From Lama guanicoe (taxonomy: Eukaryota): a stretch of DNA of 64,000 bases. How positions within the stretch are numbered: position 1 is the first letter of the stretch; each line of letters begins with the position of its first letter. A program made the position numbers and the translations under genes. Shown one piece after another: positions 5,444 through 54,352 of the stretch. The notes under the pieces are model-generated. The model saw only the letters and a program-made list of their open reading frames with translations. It ran no database searches and was not told the DNA's origin. The stretch lies in NCBI GenBank assembly GCA_013239625.1, contig MU053933.1:62001-126000 (forward strand). Direction: 5' to 3'.

Positions 5444-6574
5444 TTGCGCTTCCAGGGAGAAGAAACTGGCTTTTTGTAAAAAGAAAAAAAAAAGATCTGG
5501 TGTTATATTTCACAATAACAACATTACTTTAAAAAGCAATTATGAGTGCCTTACAATGTGAGAAACTTAATAAGAACTTAGAAGACAACCTGATCTTTAC
5601 TGGGGGTTGAATTTTTTAGGGAAAACGCTTATTTAGGGATCTGTGCTCTGATGGTGATTACCAGAGGTTTTTATTTCTTGGCATCATTTGTGTTGTGTTG
5701 AGTTGGCAGTTGTTTTCTGTTGCCGCTATCAAGCTGTTACTGTTTTGTTAAGCTTTTTAAGTTATCAATTTAACTTATTTTGAGTTGTTTGGTTATTTAA
5801 AGAGTGGTACAGCCATAGGATTTTTGGTCTAGAATTTTCTGATAACTAAACCCTGTGCCCTGGACTTCATAGGTGTTCCCCAAACCCTTCCCGATGGGCA
5901 GATGTGGATGGAGACCACACGCCCAGGGAGCTCGTTGGGGCCGTAACGATGTGCTGCCTGTGAGTCTGCGCAAATTAAAGTGTCTGCAAAATTTTGATTT
6001 GAGACATCATCTGAAGCTTTATAGAGCGTTGTTAACAATATCAAGCACCATGCAGACGTTGACATCCTTCTCCAGCAAAGGCATAAGTCAATGATTCAGA
6101 TACACTTCTAGGGCAAGTCGAATATTTACCTCTCTCCATTTTTGCTGTTGTTTTCACCAAGTTTTTTCTGCTGCAGAATGAAAGTGGGCAGATGTTGGTA
6201 GACTTCTGGGTCTTTTGCGTTAATTAAATTCAGATTGGGAGCAAAAGAGATTGTGAGATTTGTGATCTTTAAATTCTATTCTCCTTTGGATTTCTAGGCA
6301 CCCGGGAGATATATGCACAGTGGAGAGTGCAGCTGTGTGCACATACACACACAGGAGTTCACACACATGCCCACATGCCAAAGCACATGCACGCTTATGG
6401 GCTCAGGTGTGCACGCCCAGCTGTACATACATATGCATGCATTTGGCTTCATATGTGTACCTGTGCTCAAACCTGATCACACACACACACACACACACAT
6501 CTGTCATCCTTTGTTTTCTTTTCTACAAATCTGTTCTCTAGATCAAGATACCCCCAGGAGAGCGGGTAAAGCTT

Positions 6575-9650: not shown

Positions 9651-11239
9651 AGTAAGAGTGAAGAGTTTAACGGAGGCTTTTGATGAAGGAACTACAAAGT
9701 CGGTGACTCTCCACCTTGGATACCCACGGAAGCACCTGGGGAAAACCCTAAACTCCAGTGCCCGGGCCACACTCCGGAAGCAGGCGTTGGTAGTTTTCGG
9801 GCTTGCTAGGTCATGCCAACGTTCAGCCAAGACTGAAATCACTGTGCTACCTAGTAACTTCGGGAAGAAGGAAAGCAAACACAGGGGAGGTTAAAACAAG
9901 AGCACGGGACTCAGTAAACTGCATCAGCTAATGCAACTCGCTATTGGCTGGGGGAGATTAGGATTCCTGGCAACGGCTTCGTTGGTTCTGGTGAGGCAGC
10001 TATTGGAGAATCTGAATTTCACCTGGTTCGTTCTATCCCAGGTGAATTTTTCTCATTCATTTGCCAGGGAATTTACATCTGTTTGGGGGAGAAGGCGCAG
10101 TTCAGAGGTGTGATTCTATGACGGGGTGGACTGCAGTCTGGCTGCCCGTTGGGAATACCCGGGGAATGTTTTAAACCTGTTAGTGCTTGGGGTTCACTCC
10201 CTGGGGCGCTGCTTTGATCAATAAGGGGTGAGGCCTCTCTGATAGGAGCTTTCAGATCTTCGCAGGGGCAGCCAAGTTTGGGGATCCCTGAATTAGGGAT
10301 TCTCTGGGCCGAGGACCAAGAAGCACCGAGTCCAGTGAACTGTTCTGAAGCCTCTTAGAAATAATGGGTCGCTGAGCCCTTGAGAAGGTATAAAGATGGC
10401 TCATTTTCACAATTATCTTAGATAAAGAATTCGTGCATGAACCACATTCACATTTTCTGAACTTTGGCACTGTCTAGAGAATTCATGATTAATTTAAATA
10501 ATTGCTCACTCATTTTTTTTTCTGAGCTTACTTCCGGTTTTCCCAACTAGAACGACTGGTAGCTCACTGGAGGCTGATGGTGGCTCAGAACTCTTATCTC
10601 AGCTGTGGTTTTACTGGGGGAACTTTGGACAAATCAGTTTGTTGTCCATTGTTTGGTGAGGTTATTTCCGGGAAGCCCAGCCAATTCCATGTGTACATAT
10701 GTGCGGTTATAAAAGAATTTGATAATGGGTTCTCGAGAAGGCATTGAGTCGTTTCGGAAGATAAGGCGATTATCTGGGGCTTCCACAGATGCCTATGACT
10801 TTTGTCCAAGTGCTTCATTTTAATCGATTTCAGCAAGCATTTACGTGGAGTGTTCCCTGTGCGCAGGCTCTTGCCCTGCCGTAAACAAGCCCAGGAAGGG
10901 TAAGAAAGCATCCGTGGCCTGAAGCCTGGAGTCAGCCTCAGTCACCATTCTTGGAACAAGCACTGCAGACGTGAACACCTAAGGAGTCAGGCGATGACAC
11001 TGGGAACCGGAAGGCAAGCTGATAGGAGAGGGTTTACCTGGGGGCTTAAACCGCCACGCCCGTGGACACGGCTGTCTACGCCCGTGGACACGGCTGTCTA
11101 CACCAAGGGCATTTCTGGGCTGACTTAGGTGAGCATTTTTCACTAAAATAGAATAGAGCTGGCCCACCTGGACGGGTTTGACTTTTATAAGTCAGACTTC
11201 GCTGCCCAACTTGTTGTTTTCACACCTGAACGTGCATGA

Positions 11240-11490
11240 AACCCCCCTAAACCTGTGGTGGTAAAATGCAGATTCCCGGGGGGGTACAGCTCAGTGGTGA
11301 GCACAGGCTTAGCATGCCAGAGGTCCTGGGTTCAATCCCCAGTGCCTCCGTTAAAAAAATAAACAAACCTAATTATCTTCCCCCCCAAGAAAAGCTTAAA
11401 AATGCAGATTGCCTGGTCTGACCCTCTGAGGCTCCGAGTCAGCGGGTTTGGGATGGGGCCCAGGAGTCTGCATTTTAAACCAGCCTCCCA
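11240..11490 (+). mobile_element. MER5A-like hAT DNA transposon relic, interrupted by a SINE
   Basis: aaaatgcagatt...ggggcccaggagtctgcattttaaac core motif. Confidence 0.65.
11278..11398 (+). mobile_element. tRNA-derived SINE (camelid vic-1 type)
   Basis: A box (agctcagtgg), B box (ggttcaatccc) and an aaataaacaaacctaatta tail. Flanked by a ~15-bp TSD aaaatgcagatt(c/g)cc at 11263-11277 and 11399-11413. Confidence 0.85.
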
Positions 11491-14400
11491 GGACAGCTGT
11501 TGCAGGTGGGGCAGCCACACTCTGAGAAACGCCGCACACCACTCCCTGCAGGTTTGGCCACTTCCTCCTGCGGCTCCCCCCTCCCCCCAGCAGCAGGTGC
11601 TTCGGCTGCGTCTCTCCTGATGCTGACATCCTCAGGGTCACTTCCCCGATGCCCTGAAATCCACCGCACACCTGAGTAACTGCTTCAAGAACAGGAAATG
11701 ATGATTTACCACCGGTCCTTTCCCAGAACACTTTACAAGTATCGATGTTGTGTTGCTGGAGACTTGGTGGCCTCGGGTGACAGCTGTCACCATGAAAACT
11801 GTCACCCAGTTGCAGGTCGAGGGGCCCGTGACAGTCGGCGCTGCTCAGGGACCCAGCTAATGGCGTGCTGCTGCAAGAGCTGGGTCATTAGCTTGTGTCC
11901 AAGGAGCATGGACCGCCTTGATTCCTCACTTCACAGGCTTTCAAGACTACTGGTTCCCCAGGTCCCAGCACTGGGGCAGAGCCCAGCCTGCGCTCAGACC
12001 CCTGCTCCATCCCCTCTGTTCCACTCAGCCCCACTCCTTTCTTCCTTGCTTCACCAGATTCTTCCTGGTCCAAATTCTCCCATGATGGGTGACCTTGGAC
12101 AGCCAGCATCCCACATCCTGAGCGCTTCCATCACCACAGAACGTCTCGGGTTGGCTGACTCTCTGGACCAGCAAACTCACACAGTTGGAGTTTGTCCGAA
12201 GCCGAGGTCTGTGGCCACAGCGAGATGGGGAAAGGCCCCTAGACCCCCTGTAGTAGATTGATTCTACCTGGGGCAGAACTGGTCACCTGACTCCAGGCGG
12301 TTTTCCTGAATAGAATCTGGCAGGGCTGCAAACACGACTCTTATCTAAGGGTAAGGAGTGCACAGCGCTGGCTTGCTCCCTCTGTCTCTCCCTGCCCCCC
12401 TTCCCCCCTTCCCCCCCCAACACCTCCTAGATTAGGGGCTTTCAAGGTCAACTCTGGCCAAGATCACAGTAGTTCTGAAGAAGGGACAGGATTGTGTCCC
12501 AGGACAGCCTTAGCCTCGCCCAGCGGTATCCTCATTGCCCCCCAAACCAGGCGGACAGGGAGAGCCAGGGACTAATTGAGGCCCCCACTGTGGTGGCCAG
12601 AATGAGCCTTTGTCCCCTGGGTTCCTAGGGCCCATGGCCAAGGGCACAGACCACTGAAGCCCCAGCAGGATTGACCGTCGCCTTGGGCAGGTGACTCAAC
12701 ACATGGCTCACAGCATTTTGCATTTTAACCAAAATCCAGTGTTTGCACAGTTTGTCTTACAGATAAGAAAGTAAACTTAAAAAAAAAAAAGAACCCAACA
12801 ATCAGCCCATAGGACAGAGAATTATGAACCGTTGCCCTCACTGTAGCTCCTCCCCCACCCGAAACTCCTAAAGGGCTGGGCTTGTTTATGCAACGAAACG
12901 CTGCCTTGGTGGGTCACCAACGCTGGGGCGTGGCACCTACGGCGGCAGATGCTGTCCACTCTGTCCCCTGTGGCCCTGTGTCTGCTGCGTCCACTCTGAC
13001 CTCACTATGGTCTGAATGTCTGTGTCCCCCAAATTTATATGTTAAATCCCCCAAGGCGATGGTGTTGGGGAGGCGGTTGGGGTTAGGTGGTTGGGTGGTG
13101 GTTAGGTCTCCAGAAATTTCCATCGAAGTCTAAATGGACACCTGACGGCTGGACACGGGGGCAGGGGGCTGTGAGAAGCTGTGGGCTTGGGAAGTTTGCC
13201 TGGAAGGCGGGAAAGAGATCCTGCAGGACCTGGAGGGAGCCAGGTCAGGGAAGAGCCCCAGGGGTGGCGCATCCCCAGGTGACTGCGCCTTCCCAGGGGT
13301 GGAATGAGGAAGGGGAAGGAGTAGCACCACCGAGGAGTCAGAGGCAGCGAGGAAGCTGGGAAGGGACAAGGAAAAGAGGCATCCACCTGGGGCTGAGGGG
13401 GAACGTTTTCACTTGGGAATATTTGCAACAGGTGCCTCTGCCTTCTCTCTCCCTCTCTCTCTTTCTCTCCTGAAATGAAAGATTAGGGAAAAGGCAAAAT
13501 TGCCTTTTTCTACTGTGCTTCATTGTACATACCTTCCAGAAAGAAATAGATACTAACATTCTCTTTGATTTTAGACTTGATACATATTTTCAGCTTAAGG
13601 ACCGTGCTTTCCTGGTAAGCGAGCGTTTACAAATTCACATTTAGGTGCATCCTGGATTGACTCACCGTCTCTTTTCGGAGAGAGGCCAGCCAGGAGTGTG
13701 GGGTTTGCAATCAGATCTGAACTCAGCGTGCACCCCAGGTCTGGCCTTTCCAGCGGTGACTCGGGTCCTCTTCACCTCTCCCCAGTCAGTAAATCATTGT
13801 TGCCGTGTCATAGGAAATGCCCAGAATGCACTTACCCCATCCGTGACACCTTTTTGTATTTCTCAAGTGAGTGTAGCAAAATGCGCCGTTTCCAGGGGTG
13901 ACTCATGTGACGTGTGAGTCACTGGTCCATGGAAAGCAGAGCAAAGGGCAGCTCCCCCAATGCCGGGCTGTTTCCTTGTTGCTCATCTGTTGGGTTTTCT
14001 TTTCCTCGGCTTTTTCTTCAAATGGTTTTCGACAGTTTAGTGCAGTGTGACTTCCTCGGGGTGCCCCCTCTCCTTCTCCAAGCCTTCTTCCTTTTGCATG
14101 ACTTATCATCCCCAGTGGCTCCAAGATAACCACCCCTATTTCCTGCTGCTGAAAAACTGCCCTTAACACGCAGCACATTTCCTTTCTCCCCGTCACTCCT
14201 CTCCTTTCCCCAAAATTCTGCTGTGAAGTACATCCCCCAGATAACACAGTTCGTCTGGTGGTATTGTGAGCTGGAGGGTCCCCGTCTGGGAAACATAGGC
14301 AGGTTGCTGTGGGGTGATGTCTCTCGTGGTCTTTCAAACAATTGTCAGCGGGCCTTTCAAATTCCTCCTCCCAAAGGCTGTGTCCAAACCGGGCTGGGTT

Positions 14401-17559: not shown

Positions 17560-17643
17560 NNNNNNNNNNNNNNNNNNNNNNNNNNNNNNNNNNNNNNNNN
17601 NNNNNNNNNNNNNNNNNNNNNNNNNNNNNNNNNNNNNNNNNNN
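17560..17643. other. Assembly gap (84 N)
   Basis: Run of N flanked by G-rich sequence. Confidence 0.99.
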
Positions 17644-20600
17644 NGAGGGATGGGGGGGCCCTCTGGCCTCAGCCCTCTCTGGGTGGATCCAGCTGACGTT
17701 ACTCTGAACGGCATTTTAATTGTAGTCGGGCTCCAGCATATTTTACAGCGCTTTAAAATGCTGGATTCATTTCACACCGTTCTCGTAAAGTAGATGGGAG
17801 CGCTATTTTCATTTTATGGAATGAACTGAGCAAACACCTCTGGACCTTAACGTCACGGAGCCAGTCAGCACCTGAGCGGAGAGGTTAATTCCAGAGTTGC
17901 TGGTTCCCAGGGTGCAGGCGAAACCCAGGGGACAAGTTCCTCTAGGCGGGCCCTGGGCTGCTCCCTTTCCCCTCCCAGGTGCAGACCCCACCCCTGGGCC
18001 CCACCTGTGATGAGCGAGACTGAACAGAGGGGCCCCAGAAGTGGCGAGAGGAGAGACGCAGGTGGAAAGGGGCCGGGGAGCTGGTGGGGCAGCTGGAGAA
18101 GCGCTCGCTCACAGCTGCGCCCAGGAGGCTCCCGGAGGCGCTGACTGCAGGGAGAACCCCCCTCAGCTCCTCCTTGGTCGTCCTCCTCCTGAGGTCGCCG
18201 CTCGGAGCACAGGTGGGTTACCTGAACACTCTACTCATCACCTCCTCCCAGAGCACCCGGGCGTCATCCCCTCCCCTCTCCTAAATTAAGCCAAATGTTC
18301 ACCGGGACAACAGAGGGGCAGCCAGGTCATTCTGGCCCTGGAGCACATTAATCATAGACACATACCCTGGGGCATCCAAGCCCAGTGGGAGATGGTGTCT
18401 CTCCTGCAGCCCGGGGGACTGTCCTTCCCGGTGGGGATGGGAACTCTCTGTGTTTATGAGCAGGTGGAGCAACGCGGAGCCGGAAGGCAGGAGAGAGAGT
18501 GGCGAGTCCTCCAAGGGGGGAGGCTGTGGGAGGCCTGAGCAGAAGGCTGCTGTCTGGAAAGGCTGTGCCCTCGGGCGCACGAGCAATCCACCCACCGTGG
18601 GAAGGGGACGGCCGGCAAAGTCCCCTGCTGTGGGCTGGTTCTGGGTAGAGGGAAAAATGTCTTTCATGTGAATTCATAACCACTAGGCCATTCTTCATGT
18701 GGACTTTAGGTCGAAGCCCAGCCTCATGTCTCGCTGTAAGAGGAGGTACCTGGGCCTTCTGACATGCCGGGGAGGGAGCGTTCCCCACGCCTGCGCGGCT
18801 GTGCCCCCTGGGAATCCCTGGGAGTCAGGGAGCACGCAGATGTCTGTCCCCTGGCAGCTGGAATCGCACTTCTGAACCCATCAAGGAGCAGCGCCCTGCG
18901 TCTGCGGCAGGCGCTGGGCAGCACGCACAGGAAGGAGGCCGCAAAGCACCTGGTCCACAGGAGGAAGAATACGCTCCCTCTCCTTTCTTTCTGTCTGTGT
19001 GTCTCTCCCCGTCTCTCTGTGTCTATCTCTGTCTGTCTGTCTGTCTGTCCCTTTGCATTTATGATGGTGACCAGAGATGCTGTGTTGGAGAACAAGCCAA
19101 GTAGCTAAGTCACCCAAACACAGAGCCCACAGAAGTGGATGGGAGCAGGACCACACCCCAGGAGATGCGGACCACAGCCCCGCGCAAGTCCTGTCTGGGA
19201 GAACGTGTGTGGGTGCAAACTGGGGACTCGGGGGGCTGCCAAGATCAGTGAGAGCCTCAGTTTCCTCCGGGCTGCAGGCAAGTTGCCCAGTGCAGTGCTG
19301 CGTGTCACCAGGGCTGTGTCAGCATCTGCCAAATTTCACTGTAAGTTTTTAACAACCTGGGATTCAGGTTTCCTCTTCAGGGATAGAATTGGGTCAGGGA
19401 AGTTGGATCCAGGATGTCGTCACTGTGAGGGGCGTGGTTTTCCCACTGACTGTGGTTAAAGCCACAGGGCCTGGTCTGAAATCAGGGTTAACCAGGGTTA
19501 AGCAGGGTGGGACCTGGGCATGTGGGGCAGGGGACCCTGGGGGGCCCTGGGACCCTCTTCCCCATCAAGGGGAACTCACATGCTAAAGAAGCCCCATCTC
19601 TTCCTTTTGCCTTGTAGAGCCTCACGCCCTCCTGTGTCTTCTGTTCCCAGCACCTGGAATTCTCCAGCTGGGCTGGACAGAACCTAATTTTGCCAAAAGA
19701 CACCAGTGTCTGACATTCTCAGTTCTTTAAAGCAAAAGTTCTCTTAACAGTCCCTGAAGAGTGGGAGAGTTTAGCAATTAAGACTATAATTTTTGCAAGA
19801 CACAGAGAAAACAGGGCCGGATGGTACGTGCCAGTCCCGCCCCACAAGGAACTGACAGCTTCTTAAAGCGCACACCTCACCGCCGGGCAGGGATCCTGGT
19901 GTCCTCACTGACCCACAGGGGCAGGCACCATTAGTCGCCAACCCAGTATCCATTTCCCCGCATCCTAACAGGACTCCAATTATGTCTAGGCAGGTAACAC
20001 GTGCCGCAAAAGTACTCACCTTTTCAGACTCACACGAAGCTAAGGGTGGCCACCTGACTCTTCTGGCAAACAAGACATAAACAGAAATCTGCTGGGACTT
20101 CTGAGAAAGTTTTTACTTCCCGGCAACAGGCACCACTCTTCCTTCTCCCATTCTTTCTTCCTCCATGAACTGCAGAAGCAATGCCCGGAGCTGTAGCAGC
20201 CACCATACAATCATGAAGCAATATGCTGGGGGATGAAAGCCAACCTGAAGGAGGGTGGAGCAGAGACGTGGAAAAGGCAAGGGTCCATGATGGCATCACT
20301 GGGTCACTGCCCAAATGGAGGGCCTCCCACGTGACTTCTTAAAACAGGAGACAAAGACATTATGAAACCTGGGTTGGTCAGGGAGCATGTGATTTGCAGG
20401 GGAACGCTCCTAGGATGCACCTGAGTTTACACGGAGGCTTTGTCATCTGATCAGAAGAGACCTGGGCTGAAGGCCCTGCTGTAAAGACACAGGGGGTGAC
20501 CGCTGACCGGCTTCCTGGGCCAGCTTCCCCTGATGAGGCTGAGTGTCTGGGTCGTGTTAGGCGACATAGAGGCAGAAGCTTGGCTTCTCTGGACCCCAGT

Positions 20601-23199
20601 TTTTGTTTGTTTGATTGATTCCCTTTTGTTTTTACTCTAAATTAGGCCTCCCTCCTGATCTATCCTACTCTTTGCCCGGCTGAGGGCGGCAAGATTGCCA
20701 GTACATGGAGGTGGAAAGGGCAGGAAGATTTCACTGGAAAACTTTTCTGACTCTGATGAGATAATCATCTGTTGTTGGAGGTGGGAGCGGGTGTCCTCAC
20801 GTGAAACAGAGCTGGGTTTCACCCGAGAAGTGTTTTGGTTTTCTTCCTGTTTTACAAGAACGCACACCAAGTATCACTGATGTTGGTATGAACTCAGCAC
20901 CCTGAGCACAAATATTTACATTCCAGGTGAGTTAGCCTCGCTCCCAGGTCTGCTGGGTCAGCTCAGGGACCAGCATGTACCCGGGAAAGAACGCCCTGCC
21001 CGGGTCCCCGGAGGCTCCGGACTCCTGAGGGTGGACACGTGAAGCCTTTGACCCGATTTGCTGGGTGAGACTCCTGAGAAGTGAGAACGGTTCCCTCCTC
21101 GTGGCCCTTGCTCTGCAAATCCTCAGCCTGGGGCAGACCCACCCGGCTGCATTCCACCCACTGACCCCGCAGCCGGACACACGACACAGGCCATGCGGGA
21201 CCCTCCCGCCGCCTCCTTCAGGAAGAGCTGCTCCAGAGGGCGGGCCGCCCAGAGAAATCCGAGCCCCACTGGTTGTGTAAGGCTGGGCTCCGGGGGTTTG
21301 GGGGTGGGGGGCCCAACAGAAACCTTTGACTCCCCGCTCTGTCCTCCCCGCCCTGCTCCCCACCCTGGCACCGCAAATCCGGCAGTGAGGAGCCGGCTCG
21401 TCTGCCCCCATAATTGTCAACAATAGAATTCCTGTTGCTACTACCCCTGTAGACAGCGCCGACTGCTCACGCACGTCGCCGGGCTGGGAGATGGAGCCCA
21501 GAGGCCGGGGCTCGCGCCTCTCCAGCGCGGGCTCCTCTGTCCTGACCCGGGCCAGCCCTCCGGCTGCGCGCTCCGGAGGGCTCAGGGCCAGGCTGTTGGT
21601 TGTGTACTCTGTCGCGAGACGTGGTGCTTGTCTATAGTTAGTGCCCAGTGCTTCCTCCTCTGGGATATCCCTTTCCTATTTGACTTCAGGACATGCATTT
21701 GGCTTTGAAGGGCTCGCGCTTGCTTTTGAAACTCAAAAAGTGATCTGATGAGGCTACAGTCGCTTAGGAACCTTCTTTTGCCTGAGGCTTTCAGATAATT
21801 CGCATCACAGGGTGTTTAATGCTCAGGCTGGACCCATTTGGGGCAAAGTACTAAGGAACACGCACACACGTGTGCACACACACAGCCTGGACAGGCCATG
21901 TTTCCTCAAGACTAAAGATCTCACGCACAGTTAGATGCTCTATCATTTTATGAACATCTAAGCAAAAGCAGTGGCTGCCACCTGAACTACGCTACGCCGT
22001 CATCTAGAAAATGCCTCCCCATTTCAGAGATGTTGAAATGTGGCTGTGAGTCCGGGAGGTACAGCAGTTAAGCATCTTGACAGGATGTGTGCTGTCATGT
22101 TAGACAGACCAGATTTCTATACCTGAAATAGATTAAAGACCAAGATAGTCTGTACTTAAGAAGTACACAGTTCGGCCCAGGGGAGACGCTTCATGGGAAT
22201 TCAGAGGAGAGAAACACCAGCTGGGCGGAGGCAGATTGAGGAAGGATTTGAAAGGAAGGTGAAGTTATTTGAGCCTCGAAGAGTGAGGCTCTGAATGCAA
22301 GGAGGGGCCGGGAAGTGGCATCATGGAAAGTCCTCGGAGCTCAGGCGTGGGCAGGGAGGCGAGGGGGGCACGGGCCCGGGCAGGGGCAGCAGTGCCGGGC
22401 AGCCGTCACACTGACTGCAGCTCGGGTGTGGTGGTAGGGGTGCCCGGTCACCTGTACACAGAGCTCTTCGCACACTGTCACGTCGCCATCCTCACGGCCC
22501 GGAGGTGGGCAGGTTCCCCAGGAGCACAAGTCGTGCACTTAGTAAGTGCTTCCAGGAGAGCCTGGTAAGGGACCGGGATGAACAACCAGCTCAGGAACCA
22601 GAAGAAGGCCAAGTCCCAGCCTGATTCCGGGGGGGCACCGAGTGTGTGGACGTCACGTCTCAGAGAACGGAAGCTGGGGTGCACCTGTCAGCCTGGGCTG
22701 GTGGAAGTGGGGCCCGGGAGGATGGAAATCCCCACGCACTGCAGACTTGCTAAGATGTGTGGCAAAGTGACTCCTCCAGGTGGTCCTCCAAGGAGACCTG
22801 CAGGTGAGGGTTGTCCCAGGCAAACCCACATAGAAGCCAGGAGGCGCACGGGTGTGGGGATGGGGTCTGAGAGCATCTGGGCACAGCCCCACGGTGTTGG
22901 CCCAACAGGCATCATTACCCCCTTGTACAGGTGAAGGCAATTGAGATCTCTAAGGTGACACTTGTGGGAACTAGAAACAGGCTCTCCAACTGGAATAAAG
23001 CATTTCATGCTTTTTTCCATTCAGTGAGCATTTATTTTTTCTCTACAGACAACTGCCGAGAACCAGATTTGATTGCACAGTAAAGAAACTTGAATTAAAA
23101 TAGGAGCGACAGAACCATCAGTGAGCTGTGGAATTTCTCAACTATCTTTTGTTCCCTTTGCTCTACATTAAAATAGAAAGATGGTAAGTGATAGATAGA

Positions 23200-33003: not shown

Positions 33004-33651
33004 ATGGCCGCTTCCGCTCTGTCCACCTGCTCCAGCGACCTGAGCTACGGCAGCCGGGTCTGCCTGCCCGGTTCCTGTGACTCCTGCACTGGCTCCTCCT
33101 GGCAGGTGGACGACTGCCCAGAGAGCTGCTGCGAGCCCCGCTGCTGTGAGCCCCTCTGCTGTGAGCCCCGCTGCTGTGAGCCCCTCTGCTGTGAGCCCCG
33201 CTCCTGCGAGCCCCACTGCCTGACCCTCCTCTGCGCCCCAGTGAGCTGTGAGCCCAGCCCCTGCTGCCAGCTGACCTGTGAGCCCAGCATCTGCCAATCA
33301 GGCTGCAGCAGCTCCTGCACAGCCTTGTGCTGCCCGCAGTCTAGCTGCCAGCCCTCCTGCTGCACCTCCTCCCCCTGCCAGCAGGACTGCTGCAGGCCCG
33401 TGTGCTGCAGGCCCGTGTGCTGCACACCTGTCTGCTGCAGGCCCGTGTGCTGTGAGCCCACCCTCTGCCCCTCGTCCTGCTGCAGACCCTCCTCCTCTGT
33501 GTCCCTGCTCTGCCGCCCCGTGTGCAGACCTGCCTGCTGTGCCCCCGCCCCCTCCTGCCAGCCCAGCTGCTGCCGCCCGGCCTCCTGCGTGTCCCTGCTC
33601 TGCCGCCCCAGGTGCTCCCGCTTGGCCTGCTGTGTCTCTGACTCGGCCTAG
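33004..33651 (+). CDS. KRTAP10-like: Keratin-associated protein, KRTAP10 family (high-sulfur, 215 aa, single exon)
   Basis: Diagnostic N-terminus MAASALSTCSSDLSYGSRVCLPGSCDSCTGSSWQVDDCPESCCEP, Cys/Pro/Ser pentapeptide repeats and SLLCRP motifs. Kozak accATGG, upstream TATA, AATAAA at 33925. Confidence 0.93.
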   Translation: MAASALSTCSSDLSYGSRVCLPGSCDSCTGSSWQVDDCPESCCEPRCCEPLCCEPRCCEPLCCEPRSCEPHCLTLLCAPVSCEPSPCCQLTCEPSICQSGCSSSCTALCCPQSSCQPSCCTSSPCQQDCCRPVCCRPVCCTPVCCRPVCCEPTLCPSSCCRPSSSVSLLCRPVCRPACCAPAPSCQPSCCRPASCVSLLCRPRCSRLACCVSDSA

Positions 33652-35257: not shown

Positions 35258-36995
35258 GCTGCAGCCCCTCCCCAACTCTGGCCCTTGCAGAGGGTGGAGA
35301 GGTCAAGAAGAGGGTGCTTGTGGGTCAGGGACCCAGGCCCTGGGGTGCTGAGCTCTGGAGAGCATTCCTTGGAGAAAGCTGTCCCTGAGGGAGGGAGGAC
35401 TGGGGCCTTTACATCCTCTGCAGGCAAGGGAGGGGGCTCCCAGGGGGTCACCACGAGAGCGGCAGAGTCCCCTGCAGGGAGGACCACCACTGCCCCAGGC
35501 CGTGATGCCCAGAATCTGTGCTGGATGCTCGGGGAGGGGGCACAGGTGTGGGCTAAGAGGAATGCTGCCTGAGAGTCCCCGCGGCCCCGGTGTGGACCCG
35601 TGGGAGAGAGGGCAGTGTGGACTCAGGCTAGGGGAGAGAGCCTGGAGCAGGACAGACCTGGGCAGAAAGACCGTCAGCCTCCAAGTGACTGAGGAGGGAA
35701 GGTCCGGCTGGAGGGGCTCTTCCCCCGGCCGGGGGCACAGGGCAGGAAGAGCCCGCAGGGGGAGAATGGGCTCCGAGACCGGCAGCAGGGCCGGGGAGTC
35801 GGCTCCGCAGCCCCCGCGTGGCTCTCCTTCCTGCCCTTTGTGTCCCCACTTCCACCCACAACCCCGAAGGTCACCACACAGTTGAAGGACCACAGACGGA
35901 GTGTGGAAGGGGGGGCTGTGCCACCGAGAAGCTGGCCGGCCTGTGGCTGCCGTAAAAGTGACCACGAACGTGGCTGAAGCAGCTCAAACGTGCTGCCCCC
36001 CAGCCGTGGAGGCAGAATGGGAAGGAGTCTCCCGGCCACAGTTGGGGTGTGGGCGGGCGGGCTTCCCTGGAGGCTCCAGGGCAGAGTGTGACCCCTGTCC
36101 TTTCAGCTTCTAGAGGCCCTGCATCCTCGGCTCGTGGCCTCGAGTCTTGCTTGCCCCTCCCGTGGCCTCCCCTTCTGTGGCCGTCTCCCCGCCCCCCATC
36201 AGTCCCACCTGGAGGACTCAGAGCATCTCCCATCTCAAGGCCCTCAATTTACTCCCGTCCACAAAGTTGCTTTGCCGTGTAAGGGGACGTATCGCAGGTC
36301 CTGAGGGCAGGACGTGGCATCCCTGGGGAACCACGGAAGTCCCCCCCCCGCCCCCATCAGGCTCTTTCCCACCCATGGGGAGGGGGAGGAGCCCTGCGTA
36401 TCCGCAGAGCATACGGGTTTAATTTAGTGATGTGAGCGCCACCTATCAATGCTGCGCAGAAGGACATTTTACACAAAAGGGGTGAGTTCAGGACCTTAAT
36501 GCCCTCGGTCCACCCAGAGCAGGGTGAGGACTGGCCTCGTAAGGTCAGGGGACAGAGCTGGGTCCCTCACCTGAGCGCTGGGAGTTCACCTTTGGCACGA
36601 GCTTGGTCACCCACATGGTCATCTGGTGACCTGACCTGCTCTGTAAAAGGAATTTTCTAGAATCGGGGGGAACCACCCCCGGAGGAAGCAGTTTAGGGAA
36701 TGGCAGGAGGGGAGAGACACTGCTCCGCGAGCATCGCGCTCTGACGTGTACTGGAACTTCAGTGCGGGAGGCTGCCGAGCCTGGACGCCGCCCCAGCCGG
36801 CGTGGGCGCCGGGCAGGTGACCCCGCCGGGGATGAGGCCCTCAGCCTGGCCGGCTGGGATCGAGCAGCCTCGCTGCGATGCAGTCTCGTTGGGCGCGGAA
36901 GGTGTGGAGAGGACGATGTCTGGGCCGCCCCCTGGGAGTTCAGAGTTGGCTGCTTCTGACCCACACACGGGCAGGGGTCCCGGCAGGGCCTGGGC

Positions 36996-37255
36996 TCAGC
37001 AGCAGGAAGGGACACCACAGGGGATGGGTCTGCAGACCAGGGCGGGGCAGGAGGGCTGGCAGCACCCGGAGGACTGGCGGGAGGGGGCCACACACACAGG
37101 GGCTTGCAGCTCACGGGCAGCCGTGTGGTCAGCTTGCAGCTCACAGGCACGCACACGACAGGCCTGCGGCTCAGTGACACACAGCAAGTCTGCCGGCAGG
37201 GGCCGGGCTCACGGCAGGCCGGCCGGCAGCCCGCAGAGCAGCTAGTGTGGCACCT
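36996..37255 (-). pseudogene. KRTAP12-family pseudogene
   Basis: Reads (AGG)CHTSCSAGCRPAC...VCVPVSCK then VCVAPSRQSSGCCQPSCPALVCRPIPCGVPSCC*. The start codon is ATG>AGG, there is a 1-bp frameshift near 37100, and TATAAA is CATAAA (37357-37362). Confidence 0.88.
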
Positions 37256-38059
37256 GGAGGTGAGGCGCTGAGGTGGGGCCAGGACTGAGGGCTGGGTGCT
37301 TTGCGTGATAGCCCAAAGACTCAGGGCTGGGCTGGAGGCTCCTCCCCTGGGTGACCTTTATGCCCGGGCCATGGCCTCCTGGCCACAAGGCACGCGAGCG
37401 CCCTCCTCCCGGCCGCCTGCTGTTTTTCCTCCTCGTCCCTCCCCACAGTCTCTTCCTGGAGTTCCCGGTGGAAGTGACCCAGTTCGGGAAGCTCCTTCTC
37501 AGCGGGAGGCACCCAGTGACACAGTGGTCCTGCGACTTCTGTGATTGGAGCCTGGGCTGGATAGGGAAGGGCCACCACGTGGGGACGGAAGTCTCGCATC
37601 GTATTTTCAGGGTCCGCCCCAGTTGTAAGGACCCTGTGTCCGTCTGCACAAGCACAGCGTCCCCAACTTTGATGCGGAAACTCGGTGATCCAGGAGGTTC
37701 TTCCGCAGGGTTGGGCTCCTCACTGGGAGCCGCAGCCACATTACTGCCACGATCGCAGCGACGGGGTTCCAGCTTCGTGCCGGGGCTGAGCTAAGCGTTT
37801 CACGTGGACCCCCTTGTAACCGATTAATGACCAGTCCTGCCACCGCCCGGGGGCGGCTGGAGCCCCGTGTGCACAGGCGGTCCCTCAGGGCGATTCAGAA
37901 GGAGCCCATGACGGGCGCACGGTCTCAGCGCTGAGACGGAGAAGCAGGTACTTGGAGGTGTCAGCCCCCTGGGTCCCGGGTCCTCACATTGTGCCGCATG
38001 CGCTGGGGCCCTGGGCGTGTGCTCTGAGATTCCTGCATCTGTCAATTGGAATTTTTTTT

Positions 38060-39312: not shown

Positions 39313-39660
39313 ATGTGCCACACCAGCTGCTCCTCCGGCTGCCAGGCTGCCTGCTACGTGCCCAGCTCCGGCCAGGCGTCCTGCTGCACGTCCAGGCCCT
39401 GCCAGGCGTCCTGCTATGTGCCCCTGACCTGTAAGCCAGCTGTGTGCGTGCCCGTGAGCTGCAGGCCCGTGTGCCTGCCCGTGAGCTGCAGGCCCACCGT
39501 GGGTGTGGCCCCCTCCTGCCAGTCCTTTGTGCGTGTGCCCGTGAGCTACAAACAGGTCGTGTACGTGGCCCCCTCCTGCCAGTCCTCCGGGTGCCTCCAG
39601 CCCTCCTGCCCTACCCTGGTCTACAGACCCTCCTCCTGTAGCACTCCCTCGTGCTTTTGA
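39313..39660 (+). CDS. KRTAP12-like: Keratin-associated protein, KRTAP12 family (115 aa, single exon)
   Basis: MCHTSCSSGCQ N-terminus, VCVPVSC(R/K)P repeats and the C-terminus APSCQSSGCLQPSCPTLVYRPSSCSTPSCF. Kozak gccaccATG, TATA, AATAAA at 39917. Confidence 0.92.
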   Translation: MCHTSCSSGCQAACYVPSSGQASCCTSRPCQASCYVPLTCKPAVCVPVSCRPVCLPVSCRPTVGVAPSCQSFVRVPVSYKQVVYVAPSCQSSGCLQPSCPTLVYRPSSCSTPSCF

Positions 39661-43935: not shown

Positions 43936-44149
43936 TCATCACTGTTACAAGCAATGTGATGGTAAACACCCTTTACATGTGTCCTTGTGCAAGCATTCCT
44001 GCTGGGCTGGCTCCTAGGGGAAAATGTCCACTTTTTAAGCAAGAGAACACAGAAAGGCTCCCGCCCAGGGCACTCAGTGTCTACACAGCAGGGCCGGGAT
44101 GGAGTCCAGAGTCTGCTGTGTCCGGCCCCAGGAAAGCTGATCACATCGT

Positions 44150-44700
44150 CCATCTCCCGCACCGCCGTCTGCCCCGCGGACTCTAGACGGCACAGGGGAC
44201 TGAATGTAAACGTCTCGTCGCGCACAGGCTGCGGCAGCATCCCACGCGGCGGGCGGCGCTGCAAGCGCCTGACACCTGTGGCCAGTGAATCTGGGGGTCC
44301 AAGCATCCCCGTGGCTGAGCGATATTTCTCAGCTGGAACCCGGGAAACGGATGGAGCACGGAGCCGCCCACGCTCGGAGAGCGTCCCCGGGTCCGGGCGG
44401 AGGATGAGGCAGCGGGCGCGGCAGAATTCCTCCGGGCATGAGGCTTGGTAACGCACATCCGCCGCTCCCAGGGGCTTCGCGGTCCCGTTCCACTGAATCG
44501 AGGACTCTGGAGAAGGGCGGACAAGGATGCCTCTTGAGTAGGTGGCCCCGAGAGAGGCTCCCTTGTCCTGTCCCCTTCCAGGGGGCAGTGGGGCCGACCT
44601 GGAATAAGAAGGCTTGTTTTCTGGTATCTCCCCCAACCTGTTTTGTCCATCTCCGCAAAGGAGGTGTTGCTTAGCAACCGGAGAGAGGCAATGACGTCCT
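44150..44700. promoter_or_regulatory. CpG-rich promoter/enhancer-like region with an RFX X-box and a CTCF-like motif
   Basis: High CpG density over 44150-44550, GTTGCTTAGCAAC at 44666-44678 and ccttccagggggcagtg at ~44574-44590. Confidence 0.45.
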
Positions 44701-53453: not shown

Positions 53454-54352
53454 TGTGTGTGTATGTGTCTGTGTGTGTCTGTGTGTTTGTGTGTGTATGT
53501 GTCTGTGTGTGTGTGTGTCTGTGTGTGTGTCTGTGTGTGTCTGTGTGTGTGTCTGTGTGTGTCTGTGTGTGTGTCTGTGTGTGTCTGTGTGTGTGTCTGT
53601 GTGTGTCTGTGTGTGTGTCTGTGTGTGTCTGTGTGTGTGTCTGTGTGTGTCTGTGTGTGTGTCTGTGTGTGTCTGTGTGTGTGTCTGTGTGTGTCTGTGT
53701 GTGTGTCTGTGTGTGTCTGTGTGTGTGTCTGTGTGTGTCTGTGTGTGTGTCTGTGTGTGTCTGTGTGTGTGTCTGTGTGTGTCTGTGTGTGTGTCTGTGT
53801 GTGTCTGTGTGTGTGTCTGTGTGTGTCTGTGTGTGTGTCTGTGTGTGTCTGTGTGTGTGTCTGTGTGTGTCTGTGTGTGTGTCTGTGTGTGTCTGTGTGT
53901 GTGTCTGTGTGTGTCTGTGTGTGTGTCTGTGTGTGTCTGTGTGTGTGTCTGTGTGTGTCTGTGTGTGTGTCTGTGTGTGTCTGTGTGTGTGTCTGTGTGT
54001 GTCTGTGTGTGTGTCTGTGTGTGTCTGTGTGTGTGTCTGTGTGTGTCTGTGTGTGTGTCTGTGTGTGTCTGTGTGTGTGTCTGTGTGTGTCTGTGTGTGT
54101 GTCTGTGTGTGTCTGTGTGTGTTTGTGTGTGTGTGTGTGTGTGTGTATGTGTCTGTGTGTGTTTGTGTGTGTGTCCGTGTCTGTGTGTGTATGTGTGTGT
54201 TTATGTGTATGTGTGTATGTGTGTGTGTCTGTGTGTGTTTGTGTGTGTGTTTGTGTGTGTATGTGTGTGTTTATGTGTATGTATGTGTGTATGTGTCTGT
54301 GTGTATGTGTGTCTGTGTGTGTGTCTGTGTGTGTGTGTGTATGTGTGTGTGT
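53454..54352. repeat. ~900-bp GT-rich simple repeat with a perfect 22-bp higher-order core
   Basis: The core 53519-54112 is 27 x [CT(GT)5CT(GT)4], with degenerate GT/AT flanks. Confidence 0.97.

Follow-up and report, generated by a model that had tools for sequence, protein, structure and literature searches.

RGS22 contains four divergent RGS domains that lack the G-alpha-binding residues and is described as a metazoan protein that stabilises radial spokes (PMC13443885). A second study places RGS22 in RS1 and RS2 and describes a bridge to RS3 in sperm (PMC11779644). Its role as a radial-spoke component was shown only recently (PMC13443885; PMC11779644). The locus considered here lies within a stretch of 64,000 nt of Lama guanicoe DNA (the window), and was proposed in a preliminary description, judged by eye, to carry the helix pattern of an RGS domain and to be the possible remnant of a paralogue of the RGS22 or RGSL1 type. 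RGSL1, a relative of RGS22, is a testis protein with several divergent RGS domains. In canonical RGS domains, G-alpha is contacted by a Glu-Asn pair before a conserved FW motif and by an Asn two positions before a loop Asp. Unitary pseudogenes are defined by an intact orthologue at the same locus in other species and by the lack of a functional parent in their own genome; the present locus resembles them in its candidate introns, in its several disablements and in that a close parent was not found.

RGS22 reference sequences

A short motif retrieved ten metagenome loci, all ten of which encode a sequence of the RGS22 domain-4 type. The 1453-aa reading of locus L004 contains four RGS stretches according to Pfam and matches the bovine RGS22 of PDB entry 9FQR at E 2e-120; a search with this reading returned 8 homologues out of 64 candidates. 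Positions 1-4359 of L004 encode, in one uninterrupted frame, an RGS22 homologue that probably comes from a soft coral (92% to Dendronephthya across the region searched). Domain 4 is interrupted by introns in the other loci, and L004 may be a transcript or an intronless copy. L011 and L012 were rejected as RGS22 loci, being chance bacterial matches. The profiles of domains 1 to 4 (D1-D4) were built from 7, 8, 11 and 16 sequences, taken from the proteins P0005 and P0007-P0013 and the exons of eight loci, with P0006 and L008 omitted as duplicates. They are shallow, D1-D3 are mostly cnidarian, RGSL1 is absent from them, and the motif used to retrieve the domain-4 sequences had been selected in part because it resembles candidate exon C (see below). 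In these loci, domain 4 is split into phase-0 exons of 162 and 180 nt by an intron that falls seven codons after the FW motif, and a phase-0 intron in the linker of helices 4 and 5 is present in the loci with both flanking exons recovered (5/8 analysed).

Candidate exons and splice sites

The peptides quoted in the preliminary description, the stop codon, the 63-nt intron and the frame slip in the GA repeat are all present on the minus strand of the window, where four candidate exons (A-D) can be delimited. Splice strength was estimated with an approximate textbook matrix and is given as rank among the 6926 GT and 9468 AG sites of the window; the spliced status of the exons is presumed from these sites. 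Candidate exon A (13836..13921, 86 nt, phase 0 to 2) begins with the codon TGA behind a weak acceptor (13921, top 10%) and ends GG/GTAAGT at a strong donor (13835, top 0.5%), from which it joins exon B in phase 2. By eye alone, its LLHSL resembles the start of RGS22 domain 2. Candidate exon B (13533..13611, 79 nt) again follows a weak acceptor (13611, top 10%) and ends AAG/GTATGT, in phase 0 after FWK, at a donor within the top 0.3% (13532). Its RGS frame, which contains one TGA, fits RGS helices 3-4 free of gaps, and a second frame is free of stops. The candidate intron that follows (13470..13532, 63 nt, GT-AG) lies in phase 0 of the RGS frame, in the position of the helix 4-5 linker.

Behind a strong acceptor (13469, top 0.8%), candidate exon C (13387..13469) starts with a GA microsatellite (13441..13469), the site of the putative frameshift; the frame reading ERRQRHLLQIF is reached only by a slip within this repeat. 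Compared with the corresponding part of the RGS22 exon, the repeat part is shorter by about 16 nt, which would correspond to a deletion. The remainder fits helix 5 of RGS22 domain 4 and its PPxxQ(I/V)D loop, with an uncertain 3' end at a weak donor (13386, top 3.7%). Candidate exon D (12712..12775, 64 nt, GC 0.31) lies behind a poly-T acceptor (12775, 10.5 bits), carries a Y..L..W motif and one TAA and ends at a weak donor (12711, top 16%). Its match to helices 7-8 is weak, it is not in phase with exon C, and direct splicing of C to D does not yield the LLSYL frame of the preliminary description. The TGA in B, the frameshift in C and the TAA in D would be disabling, provided that the RGS frame is ancestral. 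In that frame the locus is now unable to make a protein, and a working RGS protein is very improbable here whether or not the pieces are RGS remnants. No internal repeat was found by self-blastn of the exon patches. Seven RNA or RNA-like sequencing runs, two of them labelled reproductive system, share 7-23% of the words of positions 10300-14000, a figure that reflects word sharing only and is not evidence of expression.

Splice sites of comparable strength occur on the plus strand within the same 400 nt (donors 13615 and 13867, top 0.6%; acceptors 13575 and 13786, top 1-2%), and the weak minus-strand acceptor 13611 is the mirror image of a plus-strand donor. An AT-rich patch within GC-rich DNA (13470-13611) covers exon B (GC 0.33) and the intron (0.35) alike, and strong exon-like candidates are found throughout the window on both strands. 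These features fit an explanation in which there is no minus-strand gene at all, the patch producing splice-like sites by chance or the true exons lying on the plus strand (13540 or 13575 to 13614; 13786-13866). Against it, the plus-strand frames match nothing relevant in Pfam or the PDB, the minus-strand donors 13835 and 13532 and acceptors 13469 and 12775 make an ordered set, and the profile match described below falls exactly at the minus-strand sites; we consider such an absence of a minus-strand gene unlikely. On the plus strand, 13540-13614 and 13786-13866 form two open phase-0 exon candidates that mirror exons B and A, and a TACTAAC branch-point consensus precedes the alternative acceptor 13575.

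Profile comparisons and rival readings

In a splice-constrained test, a helix 3-4 block had to end in phase 0 before an intron and to be followed by a helix 5-6 block after it, and 914 candidate introns of the window were compared. The intron 13532-13470 ranked first of the 914 for RGS22 D4 (8.2 + 17.5 = 25.7 bits; next 14.9) and was also first for D2 (16.7). Neither score was reached by any of 40 shuffled windows. On the real window, 25.7 bits was reached by none of 2000 column-permuted D4 profiles (maximum 22.2) and by none of 876 other block pairs, and the D4 result was unchanged by the slack allowed; the D2 score was reached by 42 of 2000 decoys. Taken singly, the exon C block is the best of 128000 positions for domain 4 (17.5 bits), and the exon B blocks rank fourth of the same 128000 for domain 2 (13.4 bits) and fourteenth for domain 4 (8.2 bits). 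A merged profile, averaged across the domains, again selects B (12.9 bits) and C (13.9 bits), with 0 of 3000 decoys as high and a Gumbel P of 1.4e-4. Exon D fares less well: it reaches 8.7 bits against domain 3 (rank 11) and 4.8 bits with the merged profile (rank 354), whose chain prefers a third block at 10999. The RGS frame of B and C beats the stop-free frame against domains 2 and 4, with 0 and 6 of 500 shuffles as high compared with 288 and 43 of 500. Of the helix pattern originally proposed, the B and C parts thus stand as the best in the window by this test, whereas the third motif, in exon D, is weak. The match of B and C is significant within the window and for the RGS22 family (P ~1e-4 to 3e-4), in tests that were designed after the peptides had been seen. 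Since the RGS family was picked by eye among thousands, a P of ~3e-4 is not significant after allowing for that choice.

Plain profile comparisons gave lower scores. The spliced peptide reached -0.2, 2.8, 1.9 and 1.6 bits against D1-D4 in HMMER (185, 4, 15 and 14 of 500 shuffles as high), and a longer version of it reached 4.0 bits against D4 (0/500 shuffles). Genuine RGS22 domain pieces of the same size scored a median of 23.2, 10.5, 5.0 and 1.2 bits at 0, 30, 45 and 60% further change. The medians at 45% and 60% change (5 and 1 bits) bracket the observed 2.5-4 bits, and plain profile tests therefore cannot decide. Comparison of the exon C region with alignment A1 by hhalign gave P 0.067 in the expected register, and another hhalign run against A1 gave P 0.37. 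In spliced alignment, the region ranked first of 24 segments for D2 (31.5) and D4 (22.5), scores that were reached by 0 and 5 of 250 shuffles. An unrelated L1-rich stretch, however, scored as high (33.0 on D1, 27.1 on D3); the D2 path wandered over 9 kb, and no colinear chain of domains was obtained. Without the splice constraint, the region ranked 1/188 for D4 (0/582 null windows), 7/189 for D2 (through other pieces), 29/174 for D3 and 38/171 for D1. At many unrelated places of the window, single blocks of 20 residues score 14-17 bits, and the minus strand between 4.4 and 14.5 kb shows no enrichment of RGS22-like blocks (8/129 as compared with an expected 10.2; plus strand 11).

Standard database searches did not bear out the RGS assignment that had been made by eye. 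The preliminary description had named the lack of an RGS profile or structure match as grounds for refutation, and in form this outcome was obtained, though the Pfam and PDB tests are of low power. Pfam gave no RGS match at E<=1 or 10 (45 minus-strand translations and the B-intron-C read-through; single exons and long frames) and none among 19 alternative or plus-strand translations. The gathering cut-off of the RGS domain PF00615 (23.9 bits) was not reached by the single exons, long frames or read-through that made up these scans. Sub-threshold Pfam matches to DUF4560 (E 0.01), HEM4, Wnt (on an L1 end), MscL and FGGY_C were judged to be chance. In the PDB, which contains RGS22, a sequence search with seven window fragments gave nothing below E 0.03; its best match, the IL-17 receptor B (E 0.037), was also attributed to chance. 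A six-frame HMMER scan with the D1-D4 profiles found nothing below E 0.1, and tblastn with the RGS22 homologue P0005 gave no match in the exon region. The ESM Atlas held no usable match to the exon C frame; queried with RGS22 domain 4, it returned two RGS clusters, among which a separate paralogue cluster was not seen. In a word-seeded search with the exon C part (P0004), which covered proteins of 166-2000 aa, 27 candidates came up but all fell short of E<=10. Because this search with exon C gave no match among proteins of that size, a close copy of RGSL1 is unlikely.

Compared with bovine RGS22 (PDB 9FQR chain Ha), exon B shares the helix 3-4 register that ends in FW, and exon C shares with domain 4 the F-x11-D spacing, PP and the Q and D of the helix 5-6 loop; the phase-0 candidate intron in the helix 4-5 linker is a further likeness. 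The candidate intron, however, follows the FW motif after one codon instead of seven, i.e., six codons earlier than in RGS22, 10-12 residues are missing between the helices, and FW is separated from F by about 19 codons compared with 30 in domain 4. Instead of exons of 162 and 180 nt in phase 0/0, A and B add up to 165 nt with an extra intron between them, and C has no matching 3' half. The candidate locus also differs from RGS22 in being broken by a stop and a frameshift and in being flanked by KRTAP10/12 genes; the RGS22 gene itself is presumably located elsewhere in the genome. Exon B fits domain 2 best, exon C domain 4 and exon D domain 3, a pattern that would be expected from either a distant paralogue or chance. 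By hand count against the bovine protein, identity is 4/19 for B with domain 2 and 5/17 for C with domain 4 (21-29%), and the locus is consequently neither RGS22 nor a recent copy of it, both of which were excluded. A copy of RGS22 or RGSL1 exons brought in by segmental duplication is very improbable: the same identity counts speak against it, the word-seeded search would probably have brought up a close parent of 166-2000 aa, and the 162-nt and 180-nt exons are not reproduced. In the order and spacing of the aromatic anchors, the pieces resemble helices 3-8 of the canonical domain (PF00615), from which they differ by V-S and Q at the G-alpha-contact positions. A nine-helix RGS bundle with full-length helices 4-7 was not found, helices 6-7 not being recognisable.

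The pieces may also be real exons of something else, whether of a non-coding RNA that is spliced or of a gene from another family, dead or unannotated, with the RGS likeness arising by chance. Spliced B and C (162 nt) are open in frame 0 without a frameshift, and this stop-free frame of 54 codons would then be the relevant one, if any; strong minus-strand exon candidates at 6170-6130 and 4700-4592 show no RGS enrichment. Yet the open frame of B has no match in Pfam or the PDB, the part of exon C common to both frames has no relative among proteins of 166-2000 aa, exon A enters the open frame only through a stop, and open frames of such a length are not uncommon (by estimate ~1 in 10). Such an origin, which leaves the result of 0/2000 decoys unexplained, is regarded as rather unlikely.

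The favoured reading, held at close to an even chance on the strength of the B and C match, takes the pieces for the decayed exons of a gene of the RGS22 type that contained introns and died long ago. The remnant of an RGS22-type paralogue proposed in the preliminary description is accordingly a roughly even bet, carried by the window-level match of B and C and held back by exon D. In such a gene, exon B would have encoded helices 3-4, exon C helix 5 and the following loop and, possibly, exon D helices 7-8; such a protein is not made now, as this frame has the stop in B, the frameshift in the GA repeat and no recognisable helix 6-7. If the pieces are homologous, the ancestor lacked the G-alpha-contact residues, as RGS22 does, and most likely would have been a helical scaffold in cilia or sperm flagella like RGS22 and not a G-alpha GTPase activator; the ciliary role is an inference. 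More tentatively, and with some doubt, a third vertebrate gene of the RGS22/RGSL1 type might have existed within or beside the KRTAP10/12 region and have been lost early in mammals, its exons remaining here on the minus strand between 13.9 and 4.6 kb (~10 kb). Marsupials, monotremes or reptiles may still carry an intact copy of it, so far unrecognised, that serves as an additional radial-spoke scaffold protein. If real, the locus would be a lost paralogue of a known family, whose interest would stay modest unless an intact orthologue came to light. A lost RGS22 paralogue would represent an unrecorded gene loss bearing on the divergence of mammalian sperm axonemes and would suggest that non-placental vertebrates have an axonemal protein that is still unstudied. 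Should the likeness be due to chance, the case would illustrate the ease with which an AT-rich patch can be taken for helical motifs and splice sites. A literature search, with most subscription papers outside its coverage, returned no report of such a locus.

Other features of the window

A possible further remnant lies at 5970..6300 on the minus strand, where one frame of 110 codons with five stops contains a block resembling the end of domain 3, followed by a block resembling helices 5/6 of domain 4. These blocks (6300-5970) include the top 20-mer match (16.8 bits) and reach 4.9 and 4.6 bits in HMMER (3 and 5 of 500 shuffles as high). The order of D3 followed by D4 is suggestive but not significant after correction for the number of places tried, and a link to exons A-D is putative. 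A phmmer search with 5970-6171 against 1.84 billion proteins found no true relative, its sole match being a tandem-repeat artefact. Exon-like candidates with good donors cluster on the minus strand at 6170-6130, 5469-5325, 5184-5023 and 4700-4592, the last of which has a near-perfect donor and one open frame; the frames of these candidates join inconsistently and have no Pfam match above cut-off. Behind the acceptor 10999, the minus-strand stretch 10998-10594 (~133 codons) has two stops near its start, then an open stretch of 115 codons with 48% GC; it begins with a helix-8-like block (7.8 bits, rank 47) and has no database match.

Two intact-looking keratin-associated protein genes, which we take from their sequences to be of the KRTAP10 (33004-33651) and KRTAP12 (39313-39660) subfamilies, are found on the plus strand, where their Pfam matches are Keratin_B2_2 and PMG. 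A KRTAP12-like copy without a start codon lies on the minus strand at about 36960-37260; no further KRTAP was seen among the long ORFs of the 64 kb, and an exact look-up of the two proteins in the protein collection gave no identical entry. The TSPEAR gene is presumably the host of the KRTAP10/12 cluster, and no TSPEAR exon was seen among the strict exon candidates of the window. In mammals, the KRTAP10 and KRTAP12 genes belong to a single cluster (PMC4180150). Fragments of L1 are present in the window, and the only Rfam match, tRNA-like and probably the head of a SINE, lies at 11280-11350. CpG-rich patches without an assigned gene are located at 1001-1500, 21001-21500 and 44001-44500. An assembly gap of 85 N occupies 17560-17644, and a compound (TG/TC) repeat of 900 nt with a period of 22 and 41 copies spans 53454-54352.
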